The notes beneath the pieces were generated by a model. The model was given only the letters and a program-made list of their open reading frames with translations. It searched no databases and was not told where the DNA came from. Shown here piece after piece: positions 29,177 through 52,733 of a stretch of DNA of 64,000 bases. The stretch's first letter is position 1; the number at the start of each line of letters is the position of its first letter. Both the position numbers and the translations under genes were made by a program. Origin of the DNA: an uncultured Clostridia bacterium (GTDB lineage Bacteria; Bacillota; Clostridia; TANB77; CAG-508); the NCBI GenBank assembly GCA_934162255.1, contig CAKPIG010000004.1, positions 23,050-87,049 on the forward strand, given 5' to 3'.

Positions 29177-29186
29177 TGGAGGAAAA

Positions 29187-30089: not shown

Positions 30090-30143
30090 ATTTCTGAATA
30101 GAATATAAAAAATTGCAAATGATAGAGATGAGGAAGTGAGTTT

Positions 30144-30299
30144 ATGATAAAAAAGATAGCATGGGATACCTTTAAAAATACAGGAGATGTTAACACATAT
30201 TTAGAACTTAAACAAATACAAAATGTAGAAGAACAAATACAAGAACAAAAGGTGAAACAAAATGGGGACAATAAAAACAAATGGAATAATAATTTCTGA
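30144..30299 (+). CDS. yqzL: YqzL-like small protein (51 aa) between era and recO; not in the ORF track
   Basis: MIKKIAWDTFKNTGDVNTYLELKQ... matches the YqzL signature W..F..TG..DTYL..KE. The era-yqzL-recO synteny is conserved in Firmicutes. Its 3' end overlaps the recO start. Confidence 0.6.
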   Translation: MIKKIAWDTFKNTGDVNTYLELKQIQNVEEQIQEQKVKQNGDNKNKWNNNF

Positions 30300-30972
30300 A
30301 AATAATTTAGGGGATTACGATAAAATGTTAACAATGTTAACACCAGGATTAGGCAAAATATCATGTGTAGCAAAGGGCGCTCGAAGGCAGAGAAGCGCCT
30401 TACTTGCAGGCACACAGTTTTTGTGCTTCGGAGAATACCTAATGTACAAAGGAGCAAATACATACAACATAAACTCATGTGAAACAATAGAAATTTTTTA
30501 TAACTTAAGAACAGACTTAGACAAACTAAATTATGCCGTAGAAACAACTAAAATAATAAGAGATGTAACTGATGAAAATCAAAATAGTTACAAAATATTA
30601 CAATTATATTTAAATACATTATATACATTGTCAGAAACAGACAAAAATCCAGAATTAGTAATAAGCATATTCAAACTAAAATTACTATGTTTTCTAGGAT
30701 TTATGCCGCAAGTACAAGAGTGTGTAGATTGCAAACAAAAAGAAAATTTAAGAAGTTTCAGTTTAAAAGACAATGGATTCAAATGTGAGGCTTGTGCAAG
30801 ACAAGATAAAAGTGCATTAACAATGTCTGAAAGCACAGCAAATGCTATAAAATATATAGTTATGGCACCAGCAAAAAAATTATTTTCATTTAAGTTAAAA
30901 GATGAATCTTTAAATGAATTAAAACTAATAACAAAATTATACTTCGAAGAAAAAGTAGAAAAAAACTATTAG
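30262..30972 (+). CDS. recO: DNA repair protein RecO
   Basis: An N-terminal OB-fold region and a Zn-finger CVDC...CEAC. 236 aa. Confidence 0.9.
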   Translation: MGTIKTNGIIISENNLGDYDKMLTMLTPGLGKISCVAKGARRQRSALLAGTQFLCFGEYLMYKGANTYNINSCETIEIFYNLRTDLDKLNYAVETTKIIRDVTDENQNSYKILQLYLNTLYTLSETDKNPELVISIFKLKLLCFLGFMPQVQECVDCKQKENLRSFSLKDNGFKCEACARQDKSALTMSESTANAIKYIVMAPAKKLFSFKLKDESLNELKLITKLYFEEKVEKNY

Positions 30973-31008
30973 ATATGGTAAAATTATTCTCAAAGGTAGG
31001 AGATAAAA

Positions 31009-31985
31009 TGGACGAGTTAGTTGATATATTAGTCACAACATATAATACAAATGAAAAATATTTAAAAAAGCAAATAGAAAGTATATTAAAACAAACATAT
31101 AAAAATATAAAAGTATATATAAGTGATGACAATTCCACTGACCCTAAGATTGCTGAAATATTAAAAAAATATAAAGAACAAGATAAAAGAATAGAATTAT
31201 ATATTCAACCTAAAAATTTAGGATATAATAAAAATTTTGAATTTTTACTAAAACAATCACAAGCAAACTACATAATGTTTTCAGACCATGATGATATATG
31301 GAATAAAGATAAAGTAGGAAAAAGTTTGAAAAGACTAAAAGAAAAAGATGTTGACATGGTATATTGTAATTGTAGGCAAATTGATGAAGATGGAATTGTT
31401 CTACATGATGACTATTTTAAATATAAAAATGTACCATTAGTTGAAGGAAAAAGCAAATTAGCTATTTCAAGATGTGTAGGGATTGGGTGTTCACAAATAA
31501 TAACTAAAAAAATAAAAGACAAAATGATTCCATTCAAAAACAATTTTATTGCACATGATTGGCTTTCTGCATTTATTGCAAATGAAGAAAATGGAATAAG
31601 TTACATTAAAGAACCTCTTTTTGATTATAGATTACATGCTACTAATGTTTTTGGAGGAAGAAGTTTAAATCAGAATCTAAGTAGATGGAAGCAAGAACAT
31701 GGACAAGACTATAAATCATTTGTAGAATATAGAAAAGATGCAATAAATAGAGCATATCTTGGAGGAATAAAGATGTGCAAGGAATATGTACATATAAAAA
31801 GTGATGAAGAGTTTATAAAAGAAGCGGAAAGATATTATAATAATCTTTTAGAGTCCACAAAAATTAATTGGAATTTGAAAGAGTTTTTTAAAATTTTATC
31901 AGGGAAAAATCAAGGTAAAAAGATGATTAGAGAAATAGTACTATTTCATTTCCCAATTTTAGGTTATTTAAAATTTAAAATATAA
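31009..31985 (+). CDS. family 2 glycosyltransferase
   Basis: DILVTTYNTNEKYLKKQIESILKQTYKNIKVYISDDNSTD (GT2 N-terminal signature) and a DxD-type FSDHDD. The start is at 31009 after AGGAGATAAA. Confidence 0.85.
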
Positions 31986-32039
31986 TAAAAAAATGAAACT
32001 TTTTTAAAATGGAGTTGTTTAATAAAAGGGGAGAGAAAT

Positions 32040-34793
32040 ATGAAGAATAAAAATCTTTTGGATAAAGTACTAGTTGCTGTAATTATTACAATGATAGTAT
32101 TATTTAAAAATACTATTATAAATAATAAAGTAAAAGCAATTTCAACTGAAGCAAATGAACATGTAAGAGTATTTATAGAAGAGAGTGTAGATGAAAAAAC
32201 ATATTATAGTAATACAAACAAAATTAATATATCAGGATGGAGAATGGCAGATTTTTCTAACAATCAAATAAAGGCTTATGTTGATGAAAAAGAATTAAGT
32301 AATGAACAAATTATTAATTATGAAAGAAAAGATGTAATTGCAGTAATAAAGAATTGTGGAACAGCAGAACAAAATCCAACACCAGGATTTGTTGTTAATA
32401 TGAATATAGAAAATTTATCAGAAGGAAAACATACATTAAAGGTTGATTTTATAACAGAAAAAGAACAAGTTATTGAAACATATGAAAGTAATTTTTATAT
32501 AGATAGACAATTATATGTAGAATATGAAGGACATGTTCAAAATGTAGGATGGCAAAATTATGTAAAAAATGGTCAAACTGCTGGAACAGAAGGACATAGT
32601 TTAAGGTTAGAAGCTTTTAAAGCAAAATTAGTGAATGCACCAAATGGAGTAAAAATTAAATATAGAGCAGTTACAGAAAATGGCAATTGGGGAGATTGGC
32701 AAGAAGATGGGCAAATATCAGGTACAGTAGGAAAAAGCTTAAAACTAGAGGCAATACAGATTAAGCTAGAAGGAACAGAAGAGTATTCAATATCATATAG
32801 AGCACATATACAAAATTTAGGATGGCAAGAGTGGAAAAAAGATGCTGAAACAGCAGGTTTTGAGGATAGAAGAATAGAAGCTATACAAATAAAAATAGTA
32901 AATAAAGAAAAACATGTAAGAATGTTTATTGAAACCACAGCTCAAAATAAAACGTATTATAGTGATACAAAAGAAGTTAGTATATCAGGATGGAGAATGG
33001 CAGACTTTTCGGGCAGTCAAATAAAAGCTTATTTGGATGATAAAGAAATAGAAAGTAAAAATATTACAAATTACGAAAGAAAAGATGTAATAGCAGTAAT
33101 AAAAAATTGTGGAACAGCAAAACAAAATCCAAAACCGGGTTTTTCAGTTAATGTTAATATAGAAGATTTGAAACAGGGGAAACATACTATAAAATTAAAT
33201 ATAGTAACTCAAACCAAAAATGAGGTTATTTCTACATATATGTGTGAATTTTATGTAGATAGAAAATTACATATAGCATATTCTGGACATGTTCAAAATG
33301 TAGGATGGCAAGATTCAGTTTATGATGGACAAATTGCAGGAATAGAAAATAGTGGGTTAAGATTAGAAGCTCTTAAGATTGATATAATAAACTCAGATCA
33401 AAATGCTAAAATAAAATATAAAACATATGTAGAAGGAAAAGGTTGGGAGGATTGGAAAAACGATGGAGAAATAGCAGGGACAGTAGGCAAAAAATTAAAA
33501 ACAGAAGCTATTAAAATAATACTAGAAAATACAAATGAATATAGTGTGGAATATCAGACATTTATAGAAGGTATAGGATGGCAAGAGTGGGCAAATGATG
33601 GAGAAACGTCTGGTAAAATAGATCAAAGAATAGAAGCAATAAAAATAAGAATAATACCTAAAATAACAGAAAAAACATGGATATATTTAGATACTCAAGT
33701 TTCATCTAAGGTTGGGAATGAACCACTTAAAATGATTGGGTGGAACATGACAAATGTAGAAAACTCAAAACTTCAAGTACTTGTTAATGGAAAAGTGGTT
33801 GACACTGATATAAAAAGAACTAAAAGAGATGATGTAATACAAGCAATAAAAGGTTATGGAGGAGAAGAAAAAAATCCTAATCCTGGATTTGAATTTACAA
33901 TCAATTTTGAAAATATGGAACTAGGAAATAAAAATATAAAAATTCAGTGTATCAATTCTAATAACAAAGTAATAGGTGAAAGTGAAATAAATGTTAATGT
34001 AGTACAAAAAATGGAATATTCAGAAGGAGTTTATGGTGCAACTGGATTAAGACTTGATGGAAGAGGAGGCAGTGATTTAACATATTTAAAATATGGAAAT
34101 GGAGAAAATGTATTTTTTGCTACATTTGCAATACATGGATATGAAGATAAATGGGCAAAAGATGGATATGAATTAGTGGATATAGCAAAACAATTTTACA
34201 ATAGATTGTTATCAGACAAAGATTATGACTTGGCAGAAAAATGGACTATATATATTTTCCCTGGAGTTAATATGGATGGTTTAACAAATGGATGGACTAA
34301 TAATGGACCAGGAAGAACTACAGTTTATAGTTTTGCACCTGGAAATAAAGGGGTAGACATGAATAGATGTTGGCAAGTAGGAAACTCATATCAAAGATTT
34401 ACTGATGATAGAAACTATAATGGAACATCTGGCTTTCAAGCATATGAGGCACGTTATTTAATGAATTTTATGCTAGAACATAAATCTAAAAAAGGTCAAA
34501 CATTAGTAGTGGATTTACATGGATGGACTCAGCAATTAATAGGAGACGAAAATATATGTTCATATTATGAAAAACAATTTCCAGAAAATAATAAATCATC
34601 TGTTGGAAGATATGGAAATGGTTATATGATAAATTGGGCTAGAAGTTATTTGGGATCAGCAGGAAGACCAGCAAAATCAGCATTAATAGAATTGCCAAAG
34701 CAAAATGTTACAGGACATCAATCTGTAGTTAACATGAAATTTGCAGATAGATATATAACATCAACTTTAGAAATGTTAAAAACAATTATTTAA
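32040..34793 (+). CDS. secreted cell-wall protein: signal peptide, three copies of an Ig-like module, two triplets of ChW (clostridial hydrophobic W) repeats and a C-terminal M14 zinc-carboxypeptidase-like domain
   Basis: N-terminal signal/TM. ChW consensus GHVQNVGWQ.W...G..AGT.G...RLEA.KI.L repeated six times. The C-terminal domain has HGYE (H-x-x-E) and DLHGW zinc-ligand motifs like gamma-D-Glu-DAP peptidase I / M14. Confidence 0.8.
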   Translation: MKNKNLLDKVLVAVIITMIVLFKNTIINNKVKAISTEANEHVRVFIEESVDEKTYYSNTNKINISGWRMADFSNNQIKAYVDEKELSNEQIINYERKDVIAVIKNCGTAEQNPTPGFVVNMNIENLSEGKHTLKVDFITEKEQVIETYESNFYIDRQLYVEYEGHVQNVGWQNYVKNGQTAGTEGHSLRLEAFKAKLVNAPNGVKIKYRAVTENGNWGDWQEDGQISGTVGKSLKLEAIQIKLEGTEEYSISYRAHIQNLGWQEWKKDAETAGFEDRRIEAIQIKIVNKEKHVRMFIETTAQNKTYYSDTKEVSISGWRMADFSGSQIKAYLDDKEIESKNITNYERKDVIAVIKNCGTAKQNPKPGFSVNVNIEDLKQGKHTIKLNIVTQTKNEVISTYMCEFYVDRKLHIAYSGHVQNVGWQDSVYDGQIAGIENSGLRLEALKIDIINSDQNAKIKYKTYVEGKGWEDWKNDGEIAGTVGKKLKTEAIKIILENTNEYSVEYQTFIEGIGWQEWANDGETSGKIDQRIEAIKIRIIPKITEKTWIYLDTQVSSKVGNEPLKMIGWNMTNVENSKLQVLVNGKVVDTDIKRTKRDDVIQAIKGYGGEEKNPNPGFEFTINFENMELGNKNIKIQCINSNNKVIGESEINVNVVQKMEYSEGVYGATGLRLDGRGGSDLTYLKYGNGENVFFATFAIHGYEDKWAKDGYELVDIAKQFYNRLLSDKDYDLAEKWTIYIFPGVNMDGLTNGWTNNGPGRTTVYSFAPGNKGVDMNRCWQVGNSYQRFTDDRNYNGTSGFQAYEARYLMNFMLEHKSKKGQTLVVDLHGWTQQLIGDENICSYYEKQFPENNKSSVGRYGNGYMINWARSYLGSAGRPAKSALIELPKQNVTGHQSVVNMKFADRYITSTLEMLKTII
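32190..33650 (+). repeat. internal tandem duplication (about 750 bp, about 80% nt identity) of the Ig-like plus 3xChW module inside the wall-protein gene; a third partial copy of the Ig-like module lies at about 33660-33960
   Basis: Segments beginning near 32205 and 32950 align nearly base for base. Both carry ATATCAGGATGGAGAATGGCAGA and GTAATAAA-AATTGTGGAACAGCA-AACAAAATCCA. Confidence 0.8.
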
Positions 34794-34804
34794 AAGAAAG
34801 GATA

Positions 34805-34830
34805 AAGGGTTATATATGTAACCCTTTTAT
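34805..34830 (+). terminator. rho-independent terminator after the ChW/M14 gene
   Basis: AAGGGTTA tatatg TAACCCTT then TTAT. Confidence 0.75.
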
Positions 34831-34838
34831 TTATAGTT

Positions 34839-35582
34839 ATGAAGAATAAAATTAAATTAATAAGTTTAATTGCAACTATAATCGTTGCAATTTTAGTACT
34901 TACTATAGTAGTAGTAAGTAAAAAAAGTGAAAAACCAGTATCAAATGAAGGATATGAAGAAAATATAAATACTGAGGAAGAAAAAACAAAAGAAACAGAA
35001 GTTGAAGATGTAGAAGAATTAAAGGAGCAAACTGGAAAGACTGGTGCAGCAGAATTATATGAAATACAAAATGGATATGGAGATGTAAAAGTTGCAACAA
35101 TAAAATCTAGTATAAAATATAAAGTTGCATTTTCTGGAATGATAAAAGGAAGTAAACCAGAAATAGAGGAATTAGATAATATTATAGAAAAGGAACATCC
35201 TAAAAATAACGGGATATGGATATTTGAAAAAGACAGAAATACAGTACTAGACTATTTAAAAAGTGTGACATTATCACAATATTCAGTTAATCAAGATGGA
35301 TATTTAAAAATAGATAATAAAGAACAACAAAATGATTATGATAAGAAAATCGAAAAAGCAATAAATAGTGATAAATTGTATGTTTTAAATGTATCTAGTA
35401 AGTATTATATTGTAGATGAAATAACAGGAGAGATATTAGATTATTCATTTGAAGATATGGACGAATATCAAACATATGAGTATTCTGAGGATAATAATAA
35501 ATTGATTATTTTTATAACAGAAAACAAGAAAAATCAATTAAATAAAGAGACAATTATTAAGAGTGTTGTAGATTTATTTTAA
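34839..35582 (+). CDS. membrane-anchored hypothetical protein (N-terminal TM, extracytoplasmic domain of about 210 aa)
   Basis: Clean ORF with a hydrophobic N-terminus LISLIATIIVAILVLTIVVV. It lies inside the glycan locus. Confidence 0.6.
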   Translation: MKNKIKLISLIATIIVAILVLTIVVVSKKSEKPVSNEGYEENINTEEEKTKETEVEDVEELKEQTGKTGAAELYEIQNGYGDVKVATIKSSIKYKVAFSGMIKGSKPEIEELDNIIEKEHPKNNGIWIFEKDRNTVLDYLKSVTLSQYSVNQDGYLKIDNKEQQNDYDKKIEKAINSDKLYVLNVSSKYYIVDEITGEILDYSFEDMDEYQTYEYSEDNNKLIIFITENKKNQLNKETIIKSVVDLF

Positions 35583-35594
35583 ATGGCAAATTTA

Positions 35595-35623
35595 TTGACA
35601 AAATATAAAAATAAATGTAGAAT
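35595..35623 (+). promoter_or_regulatory. sigmaA-type promoter of the ABC-transporter/glycosyltransferase operon (TTGACA, 17 nt, TAGAAT)
   Basis: TTGACA at 35595-35600, a 17-nt spacer, TAGAAT at 35618-35623. Confidence 0.65.
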
Positions 35624-35656
35624 ATAAAGGAATATCGAGAGGAGAGAGCATAAACA

Positions 35657-36451
35657 ATGGAATTTATAAAAACGCTATGGAAAAATAAAAGATTAGCATG
35701 GCAACTAGGAAAAAATGATTTTAAAAATAGATTTGCAAATACAAGTTTAGGAAGTATATGGGGATTTCTACAACCATTTGTATTTATGATGATGTATATA
35801 ATTGTATTTCAATATATATTTAAACAGACAGGACCAGAAGGAGCACCATATGTTGTATGGTTTATGCCAGGAATGGCTATGTGGATGACAATAAACGATG
35901 GAATTGTAGGGGCGAGTAATGCAATAAGAGGATACAGTTATTTAGTAAAAAAAGTAGTATTTCCTGTTGATATAATACCAGTAATATCATTATTAGCGAA
36001 TTCATTTGTTTCATTATTTTTAATTACAATAGCAACAATAGTTTGTATTATTTTTAAATTTATACCAAATGTTTTTAAACTAATATACATGATTTTTGCA
36101 GTATATATTTTCTTGATTTCTATTACTAGGTTTACCTCGGCATTAGCAACATTAGTACCTGACTTTTCTAATCTTTTAGGAATTATAATGCAAATAGGAA
36201 TGTGGCTTACACCAGTAGTTTGGGATTTGAGTATGATTGCAGAACATCATACAATATCAAGAGTTATGAAATGTTTGCCTTTCACATATTTAGTAACAGG
36301 ATTTAGAGAGAGTTTTATGGATACAGGAAACATAGTAACAGGAAGCCATGGGATCTACACACTAATATTTTGGGTAATAACAATAGTAATATTCATATGG
36401 GGAAACTATATATTTAAAAAAAGCAAAAAAGATTTTGCGGATGTATTATAA
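35657..36451 (+). CDS. ABC-2 type polysaccharide/teichoic-acid export permease (Wzm/TagG-like)
   Basis: 264 aa with six predicted TM helices. ABC-2 family features. Paired with an ATPase 1 kb downstream. Confidence 0.85.
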   Translation: MEFIKTLWKNKRLAWQLGKNDFKNRFANTSLGSIWGFLQPFVFMMMYIIVFQYIFKQTGPEGAPYVVWFMPGMAMWMTINDGIVGASNAIRGYSYLVKKVVFPVDIIPVISLLANSFVSLFLITIATIVCIIFKFIPNVFKLIYMIFAVYIFLISITRFTSALATLVPDFSNLLGIIMQIGMWLTPVVWDLSMIAEHHTISRVMKCLPFTYLVTGFRESFMDTGNIVTGSHGIYTLIFWVITIVIFIWGNYIFKKSKKDFADVL

Positions 36452-36465
36452 AGTGAGGAAAGAAA

Positions 36466-37461
36466 ATGAATAATGAAACTATAGATATATTACTTCCAAC
36501 ATACAATGGTGAAAAATATTTAAAAGAACAATTGGATAGTATATTAAACCAAACATATAAAAATATTAGATTAATAATCTCAGATGATTGCTCAAAAGAT
36601 ACTACACCGCAAATATTAGAAGAATATAAAAATAAAGATAGTAGAATAGAAGTATATTTTCAAAAAGAAAATATGGGAGTAGTAAAAGGAATAGAATTTC
36701 TTTTAAAAAAAGTAGAAAGCAATTATTATATGTTAGCAGACCAAGATGATGTATGGTTACCAATAAAAGTTGAAAAATCAATAGAAACTTTAAAAAATGA
36801 AAATGCTGATTTAGTATTTGGTGATTTAGAAGTTGTAGATGAAAATTTGAAAACTATATATCCATCATTTGGGGACTTTATGCTATTAAATAAAAAAATA
36901 CATAAATATATAAAAAGTTATAAAATGAACTATTTGTATAATTGTGTAACTGGCTGCACAATATTATCAAAAAAAGAATTTATTGAAAAAATATTACCAA
37001 TACCAAAAACTTCTAAATATTTAATACATGACCACTGGATAAGCCTTATAACATCGTTAAATGGAAAACTTGTATATATGCCAGAAAAATATATAAAATA
37101 TAGACAACATGGAAATAACCAAATAGGAACAGAAAAAATATCACATGGATTTAAAGAATTAGAACAAGTAAGAGAATTATTCATAAATGTGAAATTGGGA
37201 GTTTTTGGAACATATGTAAATAATAAAGAAAAATTTCCAAAGAAATTACAAAAGCAAAATCAAGAAGCATTTAATTATTTTAATGATATAAAAAATAAAA
37301 AAAACTTTAATTTTAAAGGATGGAGAATATTTCATCAATTATATAAAACAGAAAATGGATTATATTATATAGAAAATTTTGTTATTATGAATATGCCATT
37401 TATAGGGAGAGTTTTATTTAAAATAAGATATAGAGTATTAAAATTGCTAAAAAGGAGATAA
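36466..37461 (+). CDS. family 2 glycosyltransferase
   Basis: IDILLPTYNGEKYLKEQLDSILNQTYKNIRLIISDDCSKD and a DxD-type ADQDD. Confidence 0.85.
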   Translation: MNNETIDILLPTYNGEKYLKEQLDSILNQTYKNIRLIISDDCSKDTTPQILEEYKNKDSRIEVYFQKENMGVVKGIEFLLKKVESNYYMLADQDDVWLPIKVEKSIETLKNENADLVFGDLEVVDENLKTIYPSFGDFMLLNKKIHKYIKSYKMNYLYNCVTGCTILSKKEFIEKILPIPKTSKYLIHDHWISLITSLNGKLVYMPEKYIKYRQHGNNQIGTEKISHGFKELEQVRELFINVKLGVFGTYVNNKEKFPKKLQKQNQEAFNYFNDIKNKKNFNFKGWRIFHQLYKTENGLYYIENFVIMNMPFIGRVLFKIRYRVLKLLKRR

Positions 37462-37469
37462 AACAAAAT

Positions 37470-38831
37470 ATGGAGAAAAAAACAGCAAATTCATCAGAAG
37501 TAGTATTAAAAATAGAAGGACTTTCAAAGGGATATAAGATGTTTGCTAGGAAGAAGGATAGAATAATAGAAACATTATTTCCAATGGTAGAAAGACATGG
37601 GATTTTTGAAGCTATGCATGATTTTAATTTAGAAGTAAAAAAGGGAGAAGTATTAGGAGTACTAGGAAAAAACGGAGCTGGAAAATCTACATTACTAAAG
37701 ATGATTACAGGTGTTGTTACTCCAACTTCAGGAACAATTGAATCAAAAGGAAAAATTAGTTCTTTACTTGAATTAGGAACAGCATTTAACCAAGAACTAA
37801 CAGGCTATGAAAATATTTATCAGCATGGACAAGTCATGGGATTGACAAATGAAGAAATAAAAAGTAGGGAAAAAGAAATTATAGAATTTGCAGATATTGG
37901 AGAGCACTTATATCAACCTGTAAAAACATATTCATCAGGTATGTTTGCAAGACTTGCATTTGCATGTGCAATTAATGTTGATCCAGATATATTAATTGTT
38001 GATGAAGTATTATCTGTCGGAGATATGTCATTTCAATTAAAATGTTTTAAAAAATTTCAACAATTTAAAGAAAGCGGAAAAACAATACTATTTGTAACTC
38101 ATAGTATAACAGATGTTTTAAGAAATTGTACTAGAACAATAATAATAGATGCAGGTAGAAAAATATTTGATGGAGATGTAAAAGAAGGTGTAGAAAAATA
38201 TAAAAAAATAATAGTAGGTTTAGACGAAAAGCAAAGCAAAACAGGACTTCAAACAGATAAACAAATACTTGAAGAAAATCCTAATTATCAAAGTAATGTA
38301 GAAGTAGAAGGAGAAGAATGGAAAAAGCATTTTAATGAAAATCCAAACTTGATTGATTATGGAAATGGGGCAGCACAGGTTATTGATTATGGAATGTTTG
38401 ATGAAAAAGGTAATTATATTTCTGTATTAGAAAACGACAAAACAGTAATTTTAAAATCGAAGATATTATTCAAACAAGACGTAAAAGACCCCATATTTAC
38501 AATGACAGTAAAAGATTTTAAAGGTTTAGAAATGGCAGGGACAAATACACTTATAGAAAAAGTTGCAACAGGAGAATATAAAAAAGGAGATGTTGTAACA
38601 GCTGAATTTAAACAAATAATAAATGTAGCTCCAGGAAAGTACACACTATCATTTAGTTGTACGCATTTTAATCATAAAGGAGAACTAGAAGTATTAAACA
38701 GAAAATATGATGCATTATTAATAGAAGTACTATCTACAAAAGATACAGTAGGATTAATGAGATTAGACTCTAAAATAAAAATAGAAAAAATAAATAGAGG
38801 CAAAGATGAAAAAGAAAAAAATAATATATAG
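37470..38831 (+). CDS. ABC transporter ATP-binding protein (Wzt/TagH-like) with a C-terminal glycan-terminus-binding beta-sandwich domain of about 200 aa
   Basis: Walker A GKNGAGKST, signature SSGMFARLAF, Walker B ILIVDE. 453 aa, about 200 aa longer than a bare NBD. The extra region is predicted beta-rich, like the Wzt C-terminal CBD. Confidence 0.85.
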   Translation: MEKKTANSSEVVLKIEGLSKGYKMFARKKDRIIETLFPMVERHGIFEAMHDFNLEVKKGEVLGVLGKNGAGKSTLLKMITGVVTPTSGTIESKGKISSLLELGTAFNQELTGYENIYQHGQVMGLTNEEIKSREKEIIEFADIGEHLYQPVKTYSSGMFARLAFACAINVDPDILIVDEVLSVGDMSFQLKCFKKFQQFKESGKTILFVTHSITDVLRNCTRTIIIDAGRKIFDGDVKEGVEKYKKIIVGLDEKQSKTGLQTDKQILEENPNYQSNVEVEGEEWKKHFNENPNLIDYGNGAAQVIDYGMFDEKGNYISVLENDKTVILKSKILFKQDVKDPIFTMTVKDFKGLEMAGTNTLIEKVATGEYKKGDVVTAEFKQIINVAPGKYTLSFSCTHFNHKGELEVLNRKYDALLIEVLSTKDTVGLMRLDSKIKIEKINRGKDEKEKNNI

Positions 38832-39705
38832 TGGTTTAATAATTATAATAATACTTTTTATAATAACATTTATATATAATTATAATATAAAAAATAAAAT
38901 GAACACAACTCTAGAACAACTACAAAATAATGGAAAAAGTCAAATGATGGGATACATTATAAAAACAGACAACAATAAAGTTATAGTTATAGATGGAGGA
39001 ACATCAGATGATACAACAAATTTGGTAAATAAAATAAACGAATATACTGGAAGAGTTGATTATTGGTTTATTACACATCCACATAGAGACCATGCTACAT
39101 GCTTTATAGACATTGTAAATAACTATAATATAGATATAGGAAAAGTATATGTAACAGTTAATGATGAAGAATGGTATAAAGAACATGGAGAAGGAAGAGA
39201 TGAGGAATGTATTAGATTTTTAAATACATTAAAAGAAGAAAAAATCGCTAATAAAGTAGAAGAAGTATATCTAAATGAAGAAATACAAATAGATAATATA
39301 AAATGTGAGATATTAGGAATTAAAAATCCAGAAATAACTATTAACTCAGTAAATAATTCAAGTATGGTAATAAAAATGACAACTAAGAACAACAGTATAT
39401 TATTTTTAGGGGATACTGGTGCTGAAAGTGGAAGTAAACTATTAGAAAATCAATCAGAGAAATTAAAAGTAAATATACTACAAATGGCACATCATGGACA
39501 AAAGGGTGTTACCAAAGAAGTATATAACTTTATAAAACCTCAAATTTGTTTATGGCCAACACCAGATTGGTTATGGATAAATGACGCTGGTAATGGAGAA
39601 GATTCAGGTCCATGGAAAACAAAAGAAACAAGACAATGGATAGAGGAATTAAATGTAAAAAACAATATTATAGAAAAAGATGGTAATATAAAAATTTCAA
39701 TTTAA
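38806..39705 (+). CDS. membrane-anchored MBL-fold metallo-hydrolase
   Basis: N-terminal TM. The HxHxDH motif ITHPHRDHA and a downstream MAHHGQ. Confidence 0.8.
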   Translation: MKKKKIIYSGLIIIIILFIITFIYNYNIKNKMNTTLEQLQNNGKSQMMGYIIKTDNNKVIVIDGGTSDDTTNLVNKINEYTGRVDYWFITHPHRDHATCFIDIVNNYNIDIGKVYVTVNDEEWYKEHGEGRDEECIRFLNTLKEEKIANKVEEVYLNEEIQIDNIKCEILGIKNPEITINSVNNSSMVIKMTTKNNSILFLGDTGAESGSKLLENQSEKLKVNILQMAHHGQKGVTKEVYNFIKPQICLWPTPDWLWINDAGNGEDSGPWKTKETRQWIEELNVKNNIIEKDGNIKISI

Positions 39706-39717
39706 GGAGGGAAAAAA

Positions 39718-41337
39718 ATGAAAATAGTTCAAAGTGCTAATATATTGAATTGGTATCCTTTCAAGGAAAATCAAAAAGTACTAAATATTGGAGAACAATT
39801 AGAAGAACTTACTAGATTGTTGGCTAATAAATGTTCTAGAGTTCAAAATGTTAACCAAATATCTGAAATTGACAATATAAATGAAAGATTTGACATAATA
39901 ACATTAATAGGCATAAATGAATATGAGAGAATTAACTTGAAATATGTAATCAAAAAATTAGAAAATAGTCTAGATGTTAATGGAAAGATATTAATGGCAA
40001 TAGATAATAAATTTGGGCTAAAATTTTGGGCAGGAAATCCCGAAAAAATATTAGACAAAAAATTTATTAGCCTAATTGGATATAATAATGAACCCGAAAA
40101 AATTGAAACATACACTAAAAAATATATCGAAAAAGTATTACAAGAGATGGGATATAATACAAGGTTTTATTATCCATTGCCAGATTATAAAGTACCTAAT
40201 GTAATATTTACAGATGAGCAATTACCAAAATATAATAGTATTGACAAATATAATCCTTATTATTCAGAAAAATCAGATATATTATTTAATGAAATTGATG
40301 TATTTAGAGAAATATTAAAAACGGATAAAGAAATGTTTGCATTTTTTACTAATTCATTTTTAGTAGAAATTACAAAAGGAGAATGTGACAAAACATATAA
40401 ATATATATCATTTAATAATATGAGAAAGCCCGAGTACCAATTAATAACAAAAATTGCAGATACTTATGTTGAAAAACAAATAGTAAATGAAAATGCTCAA
40501 AAACATTATGAAGACATTAAAAATAATATAATATATTTACAAAAAAATGGAGTAAATCTTGTAGATTATATAGATGGAAAAAACATAAAAAGTAAATATA
40601 TAGAACAAAAGTATTTATTAAACAATGTACTTACAGAAAAACTAGAACAAAATAAAATAGACGAATTTGAGAAAATTATTGAAAAATATATAAATGAAAT
40701 TAGTATAAATACATTTAAAATTGAAAACTATGAAGATACAGTTTTTGGAAAATATAATATAGAAACAGAAAATAAAGACATTATAAATAATTTGCACTTT
40801 ATGAAAAATGGTTTATGGGATATGACATTTAAAAACTGTTTTTTAATAGAAAATGAATTGTATTTTTTTGACCAAGAATGGAATGCAGAAAATCTACCTG
40901 TGGAATATATACTATATAGAGCAATATTCTATACAATTTCATTAAGAAGATTTATATCAATAGAAAAATTATTTGATAAATATAATTTAACAGCATATAT
41001 AGAATTATTTAAAAGGTTAGATGATAAAATACAAGCTGAGATTAGAGATGATGAGAGATGGAAATTTTATTCTCAAAATTATAATTTTAATATTGATGAA
41101 ACAAAACAAGAATTAAAAAATATACAACTAAGAAGTGATGAACAGCAAACAGAAATAAATAATTTAAATAAAAGATTTGAAGCACAACAACTTGAAAACA
41201 ATAATTTAAAAGAAGAAAATAAGCAATTAAAAGAAAAAATAAATAGTATAAATAAAGAAAAAGATAAACTTCAAACAGAAATAAACAGTACATTTTTCAA
41301 TAAGGTAAAAAGAAAAATAAAAAGAATTATAAAATAG
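39718..41337 (+). CDS. WbdD-like chain-terminator candidate: N-terminal class I methyltransferase-like domain, central protein-kinase-like/APH-like motifs, C-terminal coiled coil
   Basis: A motif I-like VLNIGEQLEELTRLLA. Kinase catalytic-loop-like NGLWDMTFKNCFLIENELYFFDQEW (D...N...D). A 90-aa C-terminal heptad-rich segment (NNLNKRFEAQQLENNNLKEENKQLKEKINSINKEKDKLQTEIN). Confidence 0.6.
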   Translation: MKIVQSANILNWYPFKENQKVLNIGEQLEELTRLLANKCSRVQNVNQISEIDNINERFDIITLIGINEYERINLKYVIKKLENSLDVNGKILMAIDNKFGLKFWAGNPEKILDKKFISLIGYNNEPEKIETYTKKYIEKVLQEMGYNTRFYYPLPDYKVPNVIFTDEQLPKYNSIDKYNPYYSEKSDILFNEIDVFREILKTDKEMFAFFTNSFLVEITKGECDKTYKYISFNNMRKPEYQLITKIADTYVEKQIVNENAQKHYEDIKNNIIYLQKNGVNLVDYIDGKNIKSKYIEQKYLLNNVLTEKLEQNKIDEFEKIIEKYINEISINTFKIENYEDTVFGKYNIETENKDIINNLHFMKNGLWDMTFKNCFLIENELYFFDQEWNAENLPVEYILYRAIFYTISLRRFISIEKLFDKYNLTAYIELFKRLDDKIQAEIRDDERWKFYSQNYNFNIDETKQELKNIQLRSDEQQTEINNLNKRFEAQQLENNNLKEENKQLKEKINSINKEKDKLQTEINSTFFNKVKRKIKRIIK

Positions 41338-41352
41338 AAAGGATGTTTATAT

Positions 41353-43467
41353 ATGAGTAAGAAAATTGATATATATAAGAATCAAAAGAAAAAATTAAAT
41401 ATAGAAAACCCTAAAAAGGTAAGTGTTATAATTCCTAATTATAATTATGCTAATTATATTATAGAGAGAATAGATTCAATATTAATGCAAACTTACCCAA
41501 TATATGAATTAATAATATTAGACGATTGCTCTACAGATAATAGTGTACAAGTTATAAATGAAAAAATAAAAAAAATAAAAAATGAACATCCTGAAATAAA
41601 AGTAAAATTTATTGTTAATGAGAAAAATAGTGGGGGATGTGTATTTAAACAATGGAAAAAAGGATTTGATATTGCAACTGGAGATTATGTATGGATTGCA
41701 GAAGCAGATGATTCAGCAGAGAATGATTTTGTTGAAGAGTTAATAAAACCATTTGATGATCCAGAAATGGCATTATCATATTGTGAATCTGCTAAAATTG
41801 ATGGAGAAAATAACCTTATTCGCTCAAGATGCGATGATTGGTATGATATGTGTAGAACTGGTGAATGGAATAAATCTTATATTTGGACAGGAAAAGAAGA
41901 AATAATAAATCATTTAAGTGTAACAAATACTATATTAAATGTATCAAGTGTAATGTGGAAAAAACAAGATTATTCAGAGATATTTGAAAAAGCAGGGGAA
42001 TTTAGAGTAGCTGGAGATTGGTATATTTATTATAATGTATTAAGAAACGGAAAAATAAGTTGGAATACTAAAGCATTAAACTATTATAGAAAACATGGAA
42101 GTTCCGTATGTACTGACATAAAAGCAGAAATAGAATATGGAGAAATTTGCAGAATACAAGATGAAATATCAAGTTTATATGAATTGCCAGAAGAAATTAA
42201 GAAAAAACAGCAAATGAGAAGAGACTTAATGCAAGCATCATTACCACCAAAAGATAATGGAAAGAAAAAAATAGCTTGGGTAATACCACACCCCGGTAAA
42301 GGTTCAGGAGGGCATAGAACAATTATACAAAATGTAAATGCCTTAATAAGAGCAGGTTATGAATGTGATTTATTTTTTGAAGAAGATGGTGTTTCAACAT
42401 CTGAAATAGTAAGACAAAAAATAAATGACTGGTATGAACCATGTACTGCAGGAGTGTATGTGGGATTTGATATGAAAAAAGATTATGATTTGTTATTTGC
42501 TACAGGATGGCAGACTATAGAATTTGTAAGAAAATTATCAGCAAAGAAAAAAGCATATTTTATACAAGACTATGAGCCATGGTTTTTTCCAATGGGAGAC
42601 CAATATCTAATTACAGAAAATTCATATAGATATGGATTTTTACCTGTAACAATTGGAAAATGGTTATCTCATAAAATGAAAGCAGAATTTAACCAACCAG
42701 CAGAATATTTTCCATTTGGGGCTGATTTAAATACATATAAACCACTAAAAAATGTAAAAAAGGAAAATGCAGTATGCTATGTATATCAACCAGAAAAACC
42801 AAGAAGATGTGATTATATAGGATTAAAAGCATTAAAAATATTAAAAGCAATGAAGCCTGATATACAAATATATTTATATGGTTCAAATATACCAGCATCT
42901 TTTGAATTTGAATGCAAAAACTTAAATATAATTCCAATCAAGCAATGTAATGAATTATATAATAAGTGTAAAGTTGGATTATGTATGAGTGCATCAAATC
43001 CATCAAGAATACCATTTGAAATGATGGCAGCAGGACTACCAGTGGTAGAATTATATAAAGAAAACAATATATATGACTTACCAGATGAAGGTGTATTATT
43101 AGCACAACCAACACCAGAAGCAATAGCAAGTGCAATGTCATATATAATTGACAATCCAGATGTTGCAAAAAAAATGTCTGAGTTTGGCAAAGAATTTATG
43201 AAATCATACCCATTAGAAGAAGGATATAACTATTTCTTAAAAGCTGTAAAAGATATGTTAGAAACAGATTATAATAATTTACCAGAAATAGAAAAATTAT
43301 ATAAAAAAGAAGCTTTTTTAGCAAGTGAAGAAGCAATAAAAATTTCACAAGAATTAGCTCAAACACAGCCTATATATAAAGACGAACATGGAAAAATTTA
43401 CAGATTTTTAAGAAGAGGAAAAAGAAAAATAAAAAGTGTATTAGAAAAAATGGGGATAAAGAAGTAA
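41353..43467 (+). CDS. two-domain glycosyltransferase (N-terminal GT2 plus C-terminal GT4/GT1-like), WbdA-type polymerising enzyme candidate
   Basis: VSVIIPNYNYANYIIERIDSILMQTYPIYELIILDDCSTDNS (GT2) with the DxD-type AEADD. The C-terminal half has a GT-B-like E-x7-E region (FEMMAAGLPVVE). 704 aa. Confidence 0.8.
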   Translation: MSKKIDIYKNQKKKLNIENPKKVSVIIPNYNYANYIIERIDSILMQTYPIYELIILDDCSTDNSVQVINEKIKKIKNEHPEIKVKFIVNEKNSGGCVFKQWKKGFDIATGDYVWIAEADDSAENDFVEELIKPFDDPEMALSYCESAKIDGENNLIRSRCDDWYDMCRTGEWNKSYIWTGKEEIINHLSVTNTILNVSSVMWKKQDYSEIFEKAGEFRVAGDWYIYYNVLRNGKISWNTKALNYYRKHGSSVCTDIKAEIEYGEICRIQDEISSLYELPEEIKKKQQMRRDLMQASLPPKDNGKKKIAWVIPHPGKGSGGHRTIIQNVNALIRAGYECDLFFEEDGVSTSEIVRQKINDWYEPCTAGVYVGFDMKKDYDLLFATGWQTIEFVRKLSAKKKAYFIQDYEPWFFPMGDQYLITENSYRYGFLPVTIGKWLSHKMKAEFNQPAEYFPFGADLNTYKPLKNVKKENAVCYVYQPEKPRRCDYIGLKALKILKAMKPDIQIYLYGSNIPASFEFECKNLNIIPIKQCNELYNKCKVGLCMSASNPSRIPFEMMAAGLPVVELYKENNIYDLPDEGVLLAQPTPEAIASAMSYIIDNPDVAKKMSEFGKEFMKSYPLEEGYNYFLKAVKDMLETDYNNLPEIEKLYKKEAFLASEEAIKISQELAQTQPIYKDEHGKIYRFLRRGKRKIKSVLEKMGIKK

Positions 43468-43486
43468 TAAAGAAAGAGGATAAACA

Positions 43487-45181
43487 ATGGAATCTCTAAT
43501 AAGGAAGATGAAAAAGGTTTTAAAGGCAATAAACATTTCAAATATAAAGTCTGTATTAAGATATATAAAAAATAATGGATTTAATGGATTATATTCAACT
43601 TGTATTAATAAAATAAGATTTGGAAAAATCATTTTAGATGAATATGCAACTTGGATAGCAAACAATGAGCCAAGTAATGAAGAGCTAGAAAGGCAAAAAG
43701 AATATAAATCATGCCAAAATTTGAAGTTTGAAATTATATGTAATGATAATGAAAAGCTTATAAAAAGTATAGAAGAACAAACATATAAAAATTATCAAAT
43801 TTCTGTATTAGAAAAAGATAATATTCAAAATATTGTTGAAAAATCTAAGAGTGACTATATTGTACTTATAGGACAAGATATTGAATTAATGCCATTCACA
43901 TTATACGAACTTGTAAAATCAATTGAATATAGAGATAGTATATTAATATATTCAGATAATGATAAATTAATAAACGGCAAAAGGATAGAACCACATTTTA
44001 AACCTGGATTTGCTAGAGATACAATAGTTTCTCAAAATTATATTGAAGGTTTTATTGCAGTAAAAACTACATTTTTAAAAGTGCATAATGAAATTTTAGA
44101 AAATTTAAATAAAAATATAATATATGATATCGTATTACAAATTAGTGAAAAAACGAGAAAAATAGAACATATACAAAAAGTTCTATATCATAAGACTACA
44201 GAACAGATAAATATAGATACTAGTGATGAAAAAAATATAATAGAAAAACATTTGCAAAGAATGAATTTAGAATATGATAGCATACAAGATGGTATGTTTA
44301 AAGGACAGTATAAAATTAATTATAAAATACAAGGGAATCCCTTAATTTCACTAGTAATACCTAATATGGACCATGTGGACGATTTGGATAAATTACTAAA
44401 CTCTTTGAAAAAATCTACATATTCAAATTATGAGGTAATAATTGTAGAAAATAATAGTAAAAACAAAGAAACCTTTGAATATTATGAGAAAATAACAAAT
44501 GAAGATAAAAGAATAAAAGTAGTAAAATTTGAAATAAATTATTTTAATTATTCTGCAATCGTAAATTATGGAGTAGAATGTGCAAATGGCGAATATATAG
44601 TAATGTTAAATAATGACATAGAGTTTATAACTGCAGATTGGATGGAGCAAATGCTTATGTATGTTCAAAGACCAGATGTTGGAATATGTGGTGCAAAATT
44701 ATATTTCCCAGATAAAACAATACAACATGCAGGAGTAACAATAGGAACAAGAGGATTAGCAGGACATAGAAATAGAGAAATTTCTGAAAAAGACTTTAAA
44801 AAAGATGATTATATAAATATAGTGCAAGATCTAAGTGCTGTAACAGCGGCATGTTTTATGGTAAGAAAGCAATTATACATAGATATGTTAGGATTTGACG
44901 AAAAATTAGCAGTAGCATTTAATGATGTTGATTTTTGTTTAAAAGTTAGAACAGCAAAATATTTAATAGTATACAATCCATTTGTAGAGGCATATCATTA
45001 TGAATCTAAATCTAGAGGGGAAGACACAGAAAACGAAGAAAAGCAAAAAAGATTTGCAAAAGAATATGAACTATTTGTAAAAAGATGGGCTAAAGTAATT
45101 GCAAAAGGAGACCCTTATTATAATAAAAATTACAGATTAGATACCGATTTACCGAAGATTAATTATAATAAGATAAATTAA
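43487..45181 (+). CDS. glycosyltransferase with a C-terminal GT2 domain and an N-terminal accessory domain
   Basis: ISLVIPNMDHVDDLDKLLNSLKKSTYSNYEVIIVENNS and MLNNDIEF (DxD-like). 564 aa. Confidence 0.8.
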   Translation: MESLIRKMKKVLKAINISNIKSVLRYIKNNGFNGLYSTCINKIRFGKIILDEYATWIANNEPSNEELERQKEYKSCQNLKFEIICNDNEKLIKSIEEQTYKNYQISVLEKDNIQNIVEKSKSDYIVLIGQDIELMPFTLYELVKSIEYRDSILIYSDNDKLINGKRIEPHFKPGFARDTIVSQNYIEGFIAVKTTFLKVHNEILENLNKNIIYDIVLQISEKTRKIEHIQKVLYHKTTEQINIDTSDEKNIIEKHLQRMNLEYDSIQDGMFKGQYKINYKIQGNPLISLVIPNMDHVDDLDKLLNSLKKSTYSNYEVIIVENNSKNKETFEYYEKITNEDKRIKVVKFEINYFNYSAIVNYGVECANGEYIVMLNNDIEFITADWMEQMLMYVQRPDVGICGAKLYFPDKTIQHAGVTIGTRGLAGHRNREISEKDFKKDDYINIVQDLSAVTAACFMVRKQLYIDMLGFDEKLAVAFNDVDFCLKVRTAKYLIVYNPFVEAYHYESKSRGEDTENEEKQKRFAKEYELFVKRWAKVIAKGDPYYNKNYRLDTDLPKINYNKIN

Positions 45182-45207
45182 AATAAAAGGAGAATTTTTA
45201 TTAAACA

Positions 45208-46788
45208 ATGGAACAAAAATCAAATGAGATGATAGAAATAAAAAGCATAGCAAAAAAAATAAAGGATATATATAATAAAATAAAATATCCAGTTGAATTT
45301 ATAATTATTCTTATATTCTTTATATGTGTATATAATTTGATTACAACAAAGGCATATGAAGGATATTGGTCAAAAAAAATATTGATACAAACAATAGTAC
45401 CAACAATTTTAGCATTTGCATCATTAATATATAATTGTATACAAGACAAACACAAAATAGAGAATATGTTCTTAAATTTTGCTATACCTGTTGGGATATC
45501 ATTTATAGTATTTATGATACCAACTTACACACCAGATGCAAGCTCACATTTATGGAGAGCCTATGAAATTTCTGAAGGCACATTAATAACAAAAATAGAT
45601 GAAAATGGAGAGGCAAAAACGACAGTACCAGAAATAATGTCAATAAATAGAGAAACAGTATTAACAAAATATAATGTTTTAAATGAATTGTTAGACTCTG
45701 AAGAAGCTAAAGACTATAATAAAACAACACAAGTTGACTCACCATCAAAAGGATATGCTTTTGTATTTTTTATAGGATATGCAATAGGATTATTTGCAGC
45801 AAGACTACTATCTTTAAATATATTTGTAGGATTATTGTTAGCAAGGTTGGTAAACTTTATAATTGTTTTAATATTAGGATATTATGCAATAAAAAAGATT
45901 CCATTTGGAAAAATATTATTAACAACATATCTTATGATACCTATGATGATGCAACAAGCAACAGCTTTTTCTGCAGATAGTTTAATGAATGCAACAATTA
46001 TTTTATTTATTTCATATGCATTATATTTAGCATTTAAGAAAGAAGAGATATTAAAATATGAAAAAATTATATTTTTAATATTATCTGCATTTGTAGGATT
46101 GTCTAAAATTACATATCTTCCTTTAATAGGAATAGCATTAATAATTCCAAAACACAAAAAAGAAATGCCCAAAAAAGAAATAATAATTTTGGCAGTATTA
46201 ACACTAGTTATTTGTTGTGGAAGCATGTTAGTGTTAAATATATGTACTAGAGGATATACAAATGAAAGTGCTGAGAAATATTTAGAAAGTGCCGGAGTAA
46301 ATTCAAGCGAACAATTATCAGGAATAATATCCAATCCATTAAATTACTTAAAAGTATTAGATAATGATTTTAAAGTAAATGGAGAATTTTATACATTTAA
46401 TTTTATTGGACAATATATGGGATGGCTATCTATAACAGTACCAGTAGGCTATATAATTTTATATATAATAATATTATTAGCATCAATATTTATAGAGAAT
46501 AATAAACAGGTATTAGACTGGAAAGAAAAAACTTGGATGGTAGTATTGGCATTAGGAATGGATATATTAGTTGTAACTGGTTTATATTTGGAATGGACAG
46601 GAGTTGGAAAAATGTCGGTTGCAGGTGTGCAGGGAAGATATTTTTTACCAACGACAATATTATTACTATTAAGTATATGCAAAAAAGAAAATTATGTTAA
46701 AATAAAATGCCCTAATGTCGTTGTACCAGCAGTTTCACTATGTGTAAATATGATGTTTATAAATAAAGTTATATTATTCTTTATATAG
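45208..46788 (+). CDS. polytopic integral membrane protein, GT-C-like (ArnT/PMT/YfhO-type) putative extracytoplasmic glycosyltransferase or polymerase
   Basis: 526 aa with about 12 predicted TM helices and large extracytoplasmic loops. It is adjacent to the GT2 plus DUF2304 pair. Confidence 0.6.
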   Translation: MEQKSNEMIEIKSIAKKIKDIYNKIKYPVEFIIILIFFICVYNLITTKAYEGYWSKKILIQTIVPTILAFASLIYNCIQDKHKIENMFLNFAIPVGISFIVFMIPTYTPDASSHLWRAYEISEGTLITKIDENGEAKTTVPEIMSINRETVLTKYNVLNELLDSEEAKDYNKTTQVDSPSKGYAFVFFIGYAIGLFAARLLSLNIFVGLLLARLVNFIIVLILGYYAIKKIPFGKILLTTYLMIPMMMQQATAFSADSLMNATIILFISYALYLAFKKEEILKYEKIIFLILSAFVGLSKITYLPLIGIALIIPKHKKEMPKKEIIILAVLTLVICCGSMLVLNICTRGYTNESAEKYLESAGVNSSEQLSGIISNPLNYLKVLDNDFKVNGEFYTFNFIGQYMGWLSITVPVGYIILYIIILLASIFIENNKQVLDWKEKTWMVVLALGMDILVVTGLYLEWTGVGKMSVAGVQGRYFLPTTILLLLSICKKENYVKIKCPNVVVPAVSLCVNMMFINKVILFFI

Positions 46789-46811
46789 GGAAAAAATAAA
46801 AATAGGAGAAA

Positions 46812-47531: not shown

Positions 47532-47899
47532 TGCAAATATCATTAAAAATAGCATTGGTTGTAATATTATTAATATATTTATTTTGTATTACAAAGTCAG
47601 TAAAAAGAAAAAATATGAGAATAGGATATTTAATATTTTGGATTATTATTGGAATTGTTTTGATGATTGCATTACTAATTCCTAATTTAGTCGAAACTTG
47701 TTCTTCTTTGCTTGGATTTGAAATGCCAATAAACATGATTTTTAGTATAGCAATATTTATAATATTATATCTGATTTATAATTTAACTATATTAATTTCT
47801 AAAGAAGAAAATAAAAACACATTATTAATACAAGAAATATCAATTCTTAAGAAAAGAGTAGAAGAATTAGAAAAGAGTTGTGGAGAAAATGGAAAATAG
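47531..47899 (+). CDS. DUF2304-like small membrane protein partnering the DPM1-like GT2
   Basis: GTG start after the AAGGAGGA RBS. 122 aa with 3-4 TM helices and a C-terminal amphipathic helix. Typically encoded directly after GtrB-like GT2 genes. Confidence 0.65.
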   Translation: MQISLKIALVVILLIYLFCITKSVKRKNMRIGYLIFWIIIGIVLMIALLIPNLVETCSSLLGFEMPINMIFSIAIFIILYLIYNLTILISKEENKNTLLIQEISILKKRVEELEKSCGENGK

Positions 47900-48932: not shown

Positions 48933-48945
48933 AAAGGGCTAAGAA

Positions 48946-51622: not shown

Positions 51623-51631
51623 GAATTTCTA

Positions 51632-52713: not shown

Positions 52714-52733
52714 ACTAAAAACAGGAGCAAAAT

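Follow-up and report, generated by a model that had tools for sequence, protein, structure and literature searches.

The locus described here raises the question of how a Gram-positive bacterium might end the chains of a glycan that it exports through an ATP-binding cassette (ABC) transporter, and so set their length. It lies in a 64,000-nucleotide stretch of DNA (the window) from an uncultured Clostridia bacterium (GCA_934162255.1, contig CAKPIG010000004.1, positions 23,050 to 87,049 of the forward strand), in which one operon encodes the permease Wzm, the ATPase Wzt and a protein of 539 amino acids (aa), called the terminator below. A first-pass annotation of the DNA had picked out these three genes, and their coordinates and common + strand orientation are correct; it left out two genes inside the same span, a GT2 glycosyltransferase (36466-37461) and a membrane-anchored MBL-fold protein (38806-39705). 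We consider it probable that the operon specifies a length-controlled wall polysaccharide whose chains are ended by a kinase terminator of the ORF6-N family, named after ORF6 of Klebsiella pneumoniae O7, and that the cap is plain phosphate rather than methylphosphate. The features on which this reading turns are as follows.

35657-36451, + strand: Wzm, ABC-2 permease of the glycan exporter, 264 aa (PF01061 ABC2_membrane, 51.7 bits, cut-off 26.9); adjoins wzt in related loci
37470-38831, + strand: Wzt, ABC ATPase with a C-terminal carbohydrate-binding module, 453 aa (ABC_tran at residues 50-180, plus Wzt_C)
38355-38765, + strand: Wzt_C carbohydrate-binding module, Wzt residues 296-432 (PF14524, 109 bits, cut-off 30.4, E 2.5e-31)
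39718-40215, + strand: vestigial class I methyltransferase domain, terminator residues 1-166 (modelled fold; S-adenosylmethionine (SAM) site degenerate)
40291-41082, + strand: kinase domain, terminator residues 192-455, APH/protein-kinase-like fold (catalytic K253, D368, N373 and D385)
41092-41292, + strand: coiled coil, terminator residues 459-525 (~9.5 heptads in a single unbroken register; modelled helix)
41281-41334, + strand: C-terminal tail INSTFFNKVKRKIKRIIK, basic and amphipathic, the last 18 residues (7 Lys/Arg and 7 hydrophobic residues of the 18; hydrophobic moment up to 1.0)

The exporter and the terminator family

The operon is of the ABC-transporter-dependent type that had been proposed for it, with a Wzm and a Wzt that carries a true binding module of the terminal-residue type. 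The nucleotide-binding domain of Wzt (PF00005, 83.7 bits) belongs to the Wzt/TagH group, and the best solved matches of the full-length protein are to the Aquifex WzmWzt exporter (8dku/7k2t, E 6e-71), with TagH/TarH at E 1e-54 to 1e-60. The reading of its C-terminal extension as a binding domain was borne out by the PF14524 match and by the solved structures, among which the top match of the C-terminal 184 aa is the E. coli O9a Wzt module (2r5o, E 6e-11, tail residues 22-165) and the second is the Aquifex Wzt module. ATPase and module are thus homologous to those of known exporters (2R5O; Aquifex aeolicus WzmWzt, 7K2T/8DKU); modules of this kind recognize terminal caps in the systems that have been characterized (PMC11231755). 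The ligand may differ from that of the characterized modules in being a phosphate-capped rather than a methylphosphate-capped terminus.

An AlphaFold model of the terminator (39718-41337), built with 55 homologues (pLDDT 80, pTM 0.71), shows a Rossmann domain at residues ~1-166, then a disordered linker that leads into an alpha/beta domain (residues 192-455), and finally one long helix (residues 459-538), in which residues 459-525 keep a heptad register. The proposed build of methyltransferase-like domain, kinase and coiled coil is therefore right in its domain order and in the intact kinase residues, but not in its SAM-binding site, which is degenerate. No significant match to a Pfam catalytic domain was found in the protein, even at E ≤ 10.

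ORF6 of K. pneumoniae O7 comprises an N-terminal methyltransferase, an “unannotated” 223-residue domain with AmiN as its closest fold, a coiled coil and a pair of GT2 modules (Kelly et al., J Biol Chem 2024, PMC11231755). The enzyme adds first a phosphate and then a methyl group at the terminal rhamnose, giving a methylphosphate cap; the D441A substitution abolishes kinase activity and prevents export, and recognition by the O7 transporter requires chain termination (PMC11231755). Orthologues, some of which stop once the coiled coil is complete while others continue into GT2 modules, were described from alphaproteobacteria, gammaproteobacteria and cyanobacteria, and according to its authors ORF6 differs from WbdD in both sequence and structure (PMC11231755).

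By profile comparison, the 539-aa protein is a stand-alone member of this family. The comparison used a profile of 94 diverse representatives of the 539-aa protein family and residues 1-442 of ORF6, which we rebuilt from the text of supplementary Fig. S9 of the O7 paper and which contain errors of optical character recognition. Proteins were fetched with the rebuilt sequence (the listed matches are ~46-61% identical, those with near-full coverage ~46-53%), and 50 of them were aligned. Against the family profile, the rebuilt ORF6-N reaches 126.9 bits, whereas 20 shuffled copies of it score nothing and WbdD scores 19.5 bits; aligned pairwise with the window protein, it gives 53.7 bits at ~29% identity over 229 aligned columns. 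Invariant across the 50 orthologues are Y28, Y66, G91, G93, E112 and Y158, which are the SAM contacts given in the paper, together with a D-x4-N ... D-K-E-W kinase signature. With hhalign, the 94-representative and 50-orthologue profiles align over 558 columns (probability 100%, E 6e-55), from the N-terminus through both catalytic domains and the coil to the C-terminal motif. Membership thus follows from the scores of the rebuilt sequence, the invariant residues of the orthologues and the full-length alignment, a test that rests on close ORF6-N orthologues and on a sequence recovered from the printed figure. Clustered at 50% identity, the family has 3845 clusters at E ≤ 0.001, of which 803 reach E ≤ 1e-30.

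The window protein and ORF6-N have a methyltransferase fold, an APH-like kinase, a coil and a C-terminal motif in the same order; in both systems the gene is accompanied by a Wzt with a binding module, and stand-alone and GT2-fused forms both occur. They differ in their hosts, a Gram-positive member of the Clostridia here and Proteobacteria or cyanobacteria for the published orthologues (PMC11231755). Unlike ORF6-N, the window protein does not have the N-terminal 55-70 residues, has a deletion of 24 residues and appears to have lost its SAM site, and no Ig-like domain is seen between its kinase and its coil. The O7 polymer contains Rha and Ribf, whereas the polymer here probably contains galactose instead, given the presence of galE.

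The terminator had at first been called WbdD-like. The likeness holds for domain order and for the position of the gene between wzt and the polymerizing glycosyltransferases, but sequence and profile searches give no match to WbdD in the catalytic domains. Neither phmmer nor the family profile found WbdD in a search of all PDB sequences, and hhalign of the family against a single WbdD sequence gave a probability of 1%. Against a profile of 50 WbdD sequences (reference: E. coli HS, locus L081 in our numbering, 17966-20092, minus strand), the aligned part is the C-terminal coil plus a short motif only (probability 90.8%, E 1.2e-6); taken domain by domain, methyltransferase motif I was the sole alignment (probability 21%) and the kinase gave none. 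WbdD relatives give Pfam Pkinase/APH matches and the 539-aa family gives none, and the kinase of the 539-aa protein is APH-like, closest in fold to small-molecule and sugar kinases of many specificities, in contrast to the eukaryotic-type kinase of WbdD. Membership of the WbdD family was rejected because the catalytic domains have no detectable homology and only the coil and motif align. The two proteins nevertheless would follow the same functional logic, with methyltransferase, kinase, coiled-coil ruler and membrane-binding C-terminus (E. coli O9a and K. pneumoniae O3; PDB 4AZS; PMC3482155), and the WbdD gene too follows wzm-wzt, the E. coli order being wzm-wzt-wbdD-wbdA. The WbdD coil is ~130 residues or more in length, as opposed to ~80 in the 539-aa protein, and, unlike that of WbdD, the methyltransferase half of the 539-aa protein is predicted to be inactive.

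A degenerate-pattern search through 185,579 species genomes turned up 245 loci with a gene for a relative, of which the best 80 were retained. Loci in which the homologue stands beside a Wzt module are nearly all from Clostridia. A Wzt with a binding module is also encoded in 69 of the 80, and in 66 the module ends no more than 3.5 kb from the start of the homologue; the commonest gene order is wzm-(GT2)-wzt-(MBL)-terminator-glycosyltransferases. Since the linkage of terminator and Wzt is kept down to ~30% identity, it does not reflect a chance neighbourhood.

The related loci also vary. Some encode the terminator as part of a larger protein of 1165-1230 aa that also contains two GT2 modules (L035:9971-13546, 1191 aa; also L034, L039, L043, L049, L051, L053 and L062). 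These Clostridia fusions have the architecture of O7 ORF6, and their methyltransferase motif is degenerate too. Homologues with a canonical GxGxG motif, mostly from Lachnospiraceae, are found in glycan clusters without Wzm/Wzt (L063, L066, L070, L071, L072, L075, L079 and L080); the neighbours in L071 are GT-D, TPR and Glyphos_transf proteins and a GT2-GT2-methyltransferase fusion.

Catalytic halves, coil and tail of the terminator

The kinase site is strictly conserved. D368 of the window protein is aligned with the catalytic D441 of ORF6, and D368, N373, D385 and E387 are found in all 78 locus homologues that cover the region, as is K253 in 77 of them. D368, N373 and D385 are also invariant among the 94 representatives.

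The SAM site presents the opposite picture. In motif I, residues E89-I-G91-A-G93-C-G95 of ORF6 are aligned with N23-I-G25-E-Q27-L-E29 of the window protein, that is, NIGEQLE in place of EIGxGxG. The ribose-binding E112 of ORF6 is replaced by Asn, which is followed by the 24-residue deletion (a helix and a strand, after strand 2), and Y28 and Y66 of ORF6 fall in the missing N-terminal segment. An upstream extension that would supply this segment is impossible, because the gene begins 12 nt past the stop of the preceding one. Four of the six SAM contacts named for ORF6 are therefore lost (G93, E112, Y28 and Y66), and the other two, G91 and Y158, remain. When the window protein is counted together with its 80 locus homologues (n = 81), the motif is canonical (GxGxG plus the acid) in 9, intermediate (G-x-(N/D/...)-x-G) in 23 and degenerate or deleted in 49, and several relatives have lost motif I entirely. 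The SAM site thus appears to have been lost in the window protein and its close relatives, and the methyltransferase half is very probably non-functional. Scans with Pfam and NCBIfam found no further methyltransferase encoded in the operon.

From the conserved kinase residues, the decayed SAM site and the lack of a second methyltransferase in the operon, we infer an active kinase alongside an inactive methyltransferase. Capping by methylation, one of the two chemistries offered by the first-pass annotation, is accordingly unlikely given this degenerate site, and phosphate is the likelier cap.

One element of the methyltransferase domain has been retained. The DNKFG loop (D96-G100, nt 40003-40017), which reads ENQLG in the ORF6 orthologues, contains an N97 that is invariant in the 94 representatives, and its persistence even where the SAM motif is lost or deleted suggests that the domain has a role other than methyl transfer. 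The same loop, together with the preserved Rossmann fold, is an argument that a methylphosphate cap is still made, either through non-canonical SAM binding by the residual domain or by a methyltransferase acting in trans, and the high similarity of the Wzt module across loci with different methyltransferase motifs points the same way. We regard this as unlikely, though it deserves some weight, in view of the four missing contacts, the deleted helix-strand segment, the relatives without any motif I and the absence of another methyltransferase from the operon.

The coil of the terminator aligns with the coils of WbdD and of the ORF6-N orthologues. As modelled, the 80-residue helix would have a length of at most ~12 nm; the helix and its register bear out the coiled coil that had been anticipated. 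Among the 94 representatives, 85 to 236 residues separate the DQEW motif from the C-terminus. A search for coil lengths in multiples of seven yielded no pattern, the anchor patterns having matched too few sequences. The tail INSTFFNKVKRKIKRIIK is a probable membrane-binding helix, and it occupies the position of an SxSW(K/R) motif common to the terminator family and WbdD. In the 90.8% alignment described above, the family consensus NSxSWK is paired with SxSWR of WbdD; the window protein itself has NSTFFNK.

A proposed mechanism and its alternatives

These observations can be assembled into a mechanism. The operon (~35595-55170) would assemble a wall-associated polysaccharide on the cytoplasmic side of the membrane, with a polyprenol as carrier, the chain being elongated by the glycosyltransferases encoded at 36466-37461 and 41353-45181. 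The APH-like kinase of the terminator would phosphorylate the non-reducing terminal sugar and thereby stop growth. With the basic tail as anchor, the coil would keep the catalytic head a set distance away from the membrane, giving a modal chain length. The Wzt module would recognize the cap, such that only capped chains would be exported through Wzm/Wzt. After export, side chains could be added by a GacI/J/L-like module, possibly along with glycerol phosphate from a sulfatase-family transferase. The ruler role, the gating by the module and the cap chemistry are modelled on characterized Gram-negative systems (PMC3482155, PMC11231755), and we infer the substrate and the nature of the polymer. 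The pathway logic behind the length-controlled, end-capped polymer put forward at the outset is supported by the pathway genes, the Wzt module and the kinase residues of the terminator; a methylated cap is unlikely, given the degenerate SAM site.

Several points weigh against this scheme. To our knowledge, a plain phosphate cap has no characterized precedent, and phosphate on the glycan of this organism is itself a prediction from sequence. The intermediate forms of the methyltransferase (EIGGNxG ... IEPN) may or may not have kept the ability to bind SAM. Compared with its counterparts in loci with a better-kept methyltransferase motif, the Wzt binding module of this locus is 78-80% identical, and no position in the module tracks methyltransferase status under what is a crude classification of the loci; given this similarity across motif states, both groups may recognize the same cap. 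HMMER alone does not align the kinase N-lobe of the Clostridial proteins with ORF6, from which it has diverged too far. No initiating transferase, peptidoglycan ligase (LCP) or sugar-nucleotide gene besides galE was found in the window. Finally, the Lachnospiraceae clusters without Wzm/Wzt, such as L071, indicate that the family is not tied to ABC export everywhere.

That last point, together with the many specificities of the small-molecule and sugar kinases closest to it in fold, might be taken to mean that the kinase is not a terminator at all, but acts on internal residues, a lipid-linked primer or some other substrate while the coil assembles a biosynthetic complex. This is quite unlikely: the gene is tightly linked to a module-bearing Wzt in 66 of 80 loci, the characterized modules read terminal caps, and the sole characterized member of the family is a terminator (PMC11231755). 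A protein that is inactive in both its catalytic halves and serves only as a structural ruler or scaffold is highly improbable; degeneracy is clear in the methyltransferase half, but the kinase residues do not vary across ~170 sequences with identities as low as 27%, among them every lineage without a SAM site. Least credible, and to our minds scarcely worth entertaining, is a WbdD orthologue making methylphosphate as in E. coli O9a and K. pneumoniae O3, since its matching domain order, position after wzm-wzt and alignable coil and SxSW(K/R) motif are set against the failed PDB search, a catalytic-domain alignment confined to motif I, the lack of Pfam Pkinase/APH matches and the degenerate SAM site. 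A kinase terminator of the ORF6-N family with a phosphate cap is the reading on which the rest of the operon is considered below.

The polymer, its operon and their wider meaning

The glycan operon (~35.6-55.2 kb) is tightly packed, its genes being spaced by -47 to +106 nt, and contains the following further features.

35595-35623, + strand: promoter candidate, sigma-70-like (TTGACA-17-TAGAAT, 11/12), 34 nt upstream of wzm
36466-37461, + strand: GT2 glycosyltransferase, 331 aa, between wzm and wzt (PF00535, E 6.5e-31); in the same position in most related loci
38806-39705, + strand: accessory MBL-fold protein with an N-terminal membrane anchor (PF00753, E 1.4e-8; hydrophobic N-terminus); overlaps the end of wzt by 26 nt
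41353-43467, + strand: two-domain glycosyltransferase, GT2 plus WsaF-like GT4, probable polymerase component (Pfam; the WsaF-like part is a fold-level hint)
43487-45181, + strand: 564-aa protein with a C-terminal GT2, probable polymerase component (Pfam)
45208-47899, + strand: DUF2142 membrane protein, 239-aa GT2 and DUF2304 protein, GacL/GacI/GacJ-like (Pfam)
47880-55170, + strand: GT2, GtrA-like protein, Polysacc_synt-type flippase, GT8, GalE, sulfatase-family phosphoglycerol-transferase-like protein and GT2 (Pfam, NCBIfam)

The promoter match is the highest-scoring site within 29000-48900, and it is merely suggestive because such sites are not enriched over shuffled sequence in AT-rich DNA. 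A hairpin resembling a terminator of transcription lies at 34804-34827.

The MBL-fold protein has weak similarity to the ComEC-type MBL, and a copy at least 45% identical is present in 25 of the 80 related loci. It is probably extracytoplasmic, and its role might be the trimming or remodelling of the glycan after export, or of the cap. Its presence showed no clear correlation with methyltransferase decay among the loci, the gene occurring with both motif states.

Pfam matches confirmed that the genes at 41353-45181 encode glycosyltransferases. The GT2 plus WsaF-like gene comes after the terminator in the closer loci (L001-L033), and one to three paralogues of the 564-aa GT2 protein follow the terminator in most loci. 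The genes at 45208-47899 form a probable module for extracytoplasmic side-chain addition; GacJ, a DUF2304 protein, activates GacI (10.1101/180810). The sulfatase-family protein reaches 184 bits with the phosphoglycerol transferase model, whose cut-off is 574, a family-level resemblance, and that of the DUF2142 protein is likewise at family level.

Galactose is a likely component of the polymer because GalE (TIGR01179, 447.9 bits) is the only sugar-nucleotide gene in the window and is also linked to wzm in more distant loci. Of the three products that had been suggested, a wall polysaccharide, an S-layer glycan or a teichoic-like polymer, the first is favoured; no S-layer glycosylation gene was seen in the window. 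The closest parallel in Gram-positive bacteria is provided by the rhamnose-rich cell wall polysaccharide (Rha-CWPS) clusters of streptococci, lactococci and enterococci (RgpC/D; GacI/J/L/H; PMC9574508, 10.1101/180810), which likewise specify an ABC-transporter-dependent wall polysaccharide. Moreover, 45208-54218 resembles the side-chain machinery of the streptococcal group A carbohydrate, with a GT2 and DUF2304 pair, a candidate membrane glycosyltransferase, a flippase and a GacH-like sulfatase-family gene. In contrast to those clusters, the window has no rml genes, with galE in their place, offers toward the rhamnosyltransferases RgpA/B/F no more than the fold-level hint of the WsaF-like domain, and has a terminator, whereas no kinase/methyltransferase terminator is recognized in the Rha-CWPS systems and termination has merely been hypothesized for RgpE.

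The window as a whole is AT-rich (~26% G+C), with almost all of its genes on the + strand and housekeeping genes, including groEL, alaS, ligA, era and recO, at its start, ahead of the glycan operon. A sequence identical to the 539-aa protein is present on metagenome contigs. The nearest genome loci are from metagenome-assembled genomes (MAGs) of uncultured Clostridia, mostly from gut samples, one of them with a 1.55-Mb chromosome. A sortase (11722-12393) and a ChW-repeat protein are consistent with a Gram-positive Clostridia host. The label of spore-former attached to this host finds no support, there being no sporulation genes among the scanned open reading frames (ORFs) of the window and the nearest relatives being the uncultured Clostridia MAGs.

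The ChW-repeat protein (917 aa, with an M14 carboxypeptidase domain in addition to six ChW repeats) is encoded together with a 247-aa membrane-anchored protein without a family match at 32040-35582 (+ strand), and the pair is found again upstream of wzm in L001, L002, L015, L022, L033, L037, L067, L068 and L078. The ChW/M14 protein may be a peptidoglycan hydrolase that binds wall glycan and is tied to the polymer of the operon. On the far side of the operon, 56284-60382 encodes a VWA-domain protein with a tip-pilin-like Ig domain (- strand) and an 869-aa repeat protein with Flg_new and GBS_Bsp-like matches (+ strand), which, with the sortase, suggest sortase-dependent surface proteins or pili. 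Elsewhere, the window holds two distinct genes of the DprA family (DNA_processg_A; 1236-2114 and 16345-17004, + strand), the second of which (219 aa) has no winged-helix C-terminus, and a 773-aa ORF without a Pfam match immediately upstream of era (26855-29176, + strand).

The logic of this pathway is known; its Gram-positive setting and its kinase-only terminator are new. For length control of ABC-dependent wall polysaccharides in Gram-positive bacteria, a 2022 review of the rhamnose-rich polymers could point to a proposed terminator without experimental evidence (PMC9574508). The operon offers a concrete candidate, widely conserved in gut Clostridia, in the form of a kinase, a coil and a module-bearing transporter. 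It also extends the ORF6-type terminators, reported in 2024 from Proteobacteria and cyanobacteria, to another phylum, and it brings into view a large terminator family whose kinase domain has no Pfam model. With the methyltransferase site decayed in 49 of 81 proteins and the kinase site constant, the two capping steps are separated and a phosphate-only cap is predicted. More tentatively, and as a possibility that we would not yet favour, a large clade of gut Clostridia may use a kinase-only terminator, a bare-phosphate cap and a retuned Wzt module, the dead methyltransferase domain being kept as a glycan-binding or structural module. If such a clade exists, its termination chemistry would be one not described in any ABC-transporter-dependent system, and it would also present the first defined control of chain length for a Gram-positive wall polysaccharide.

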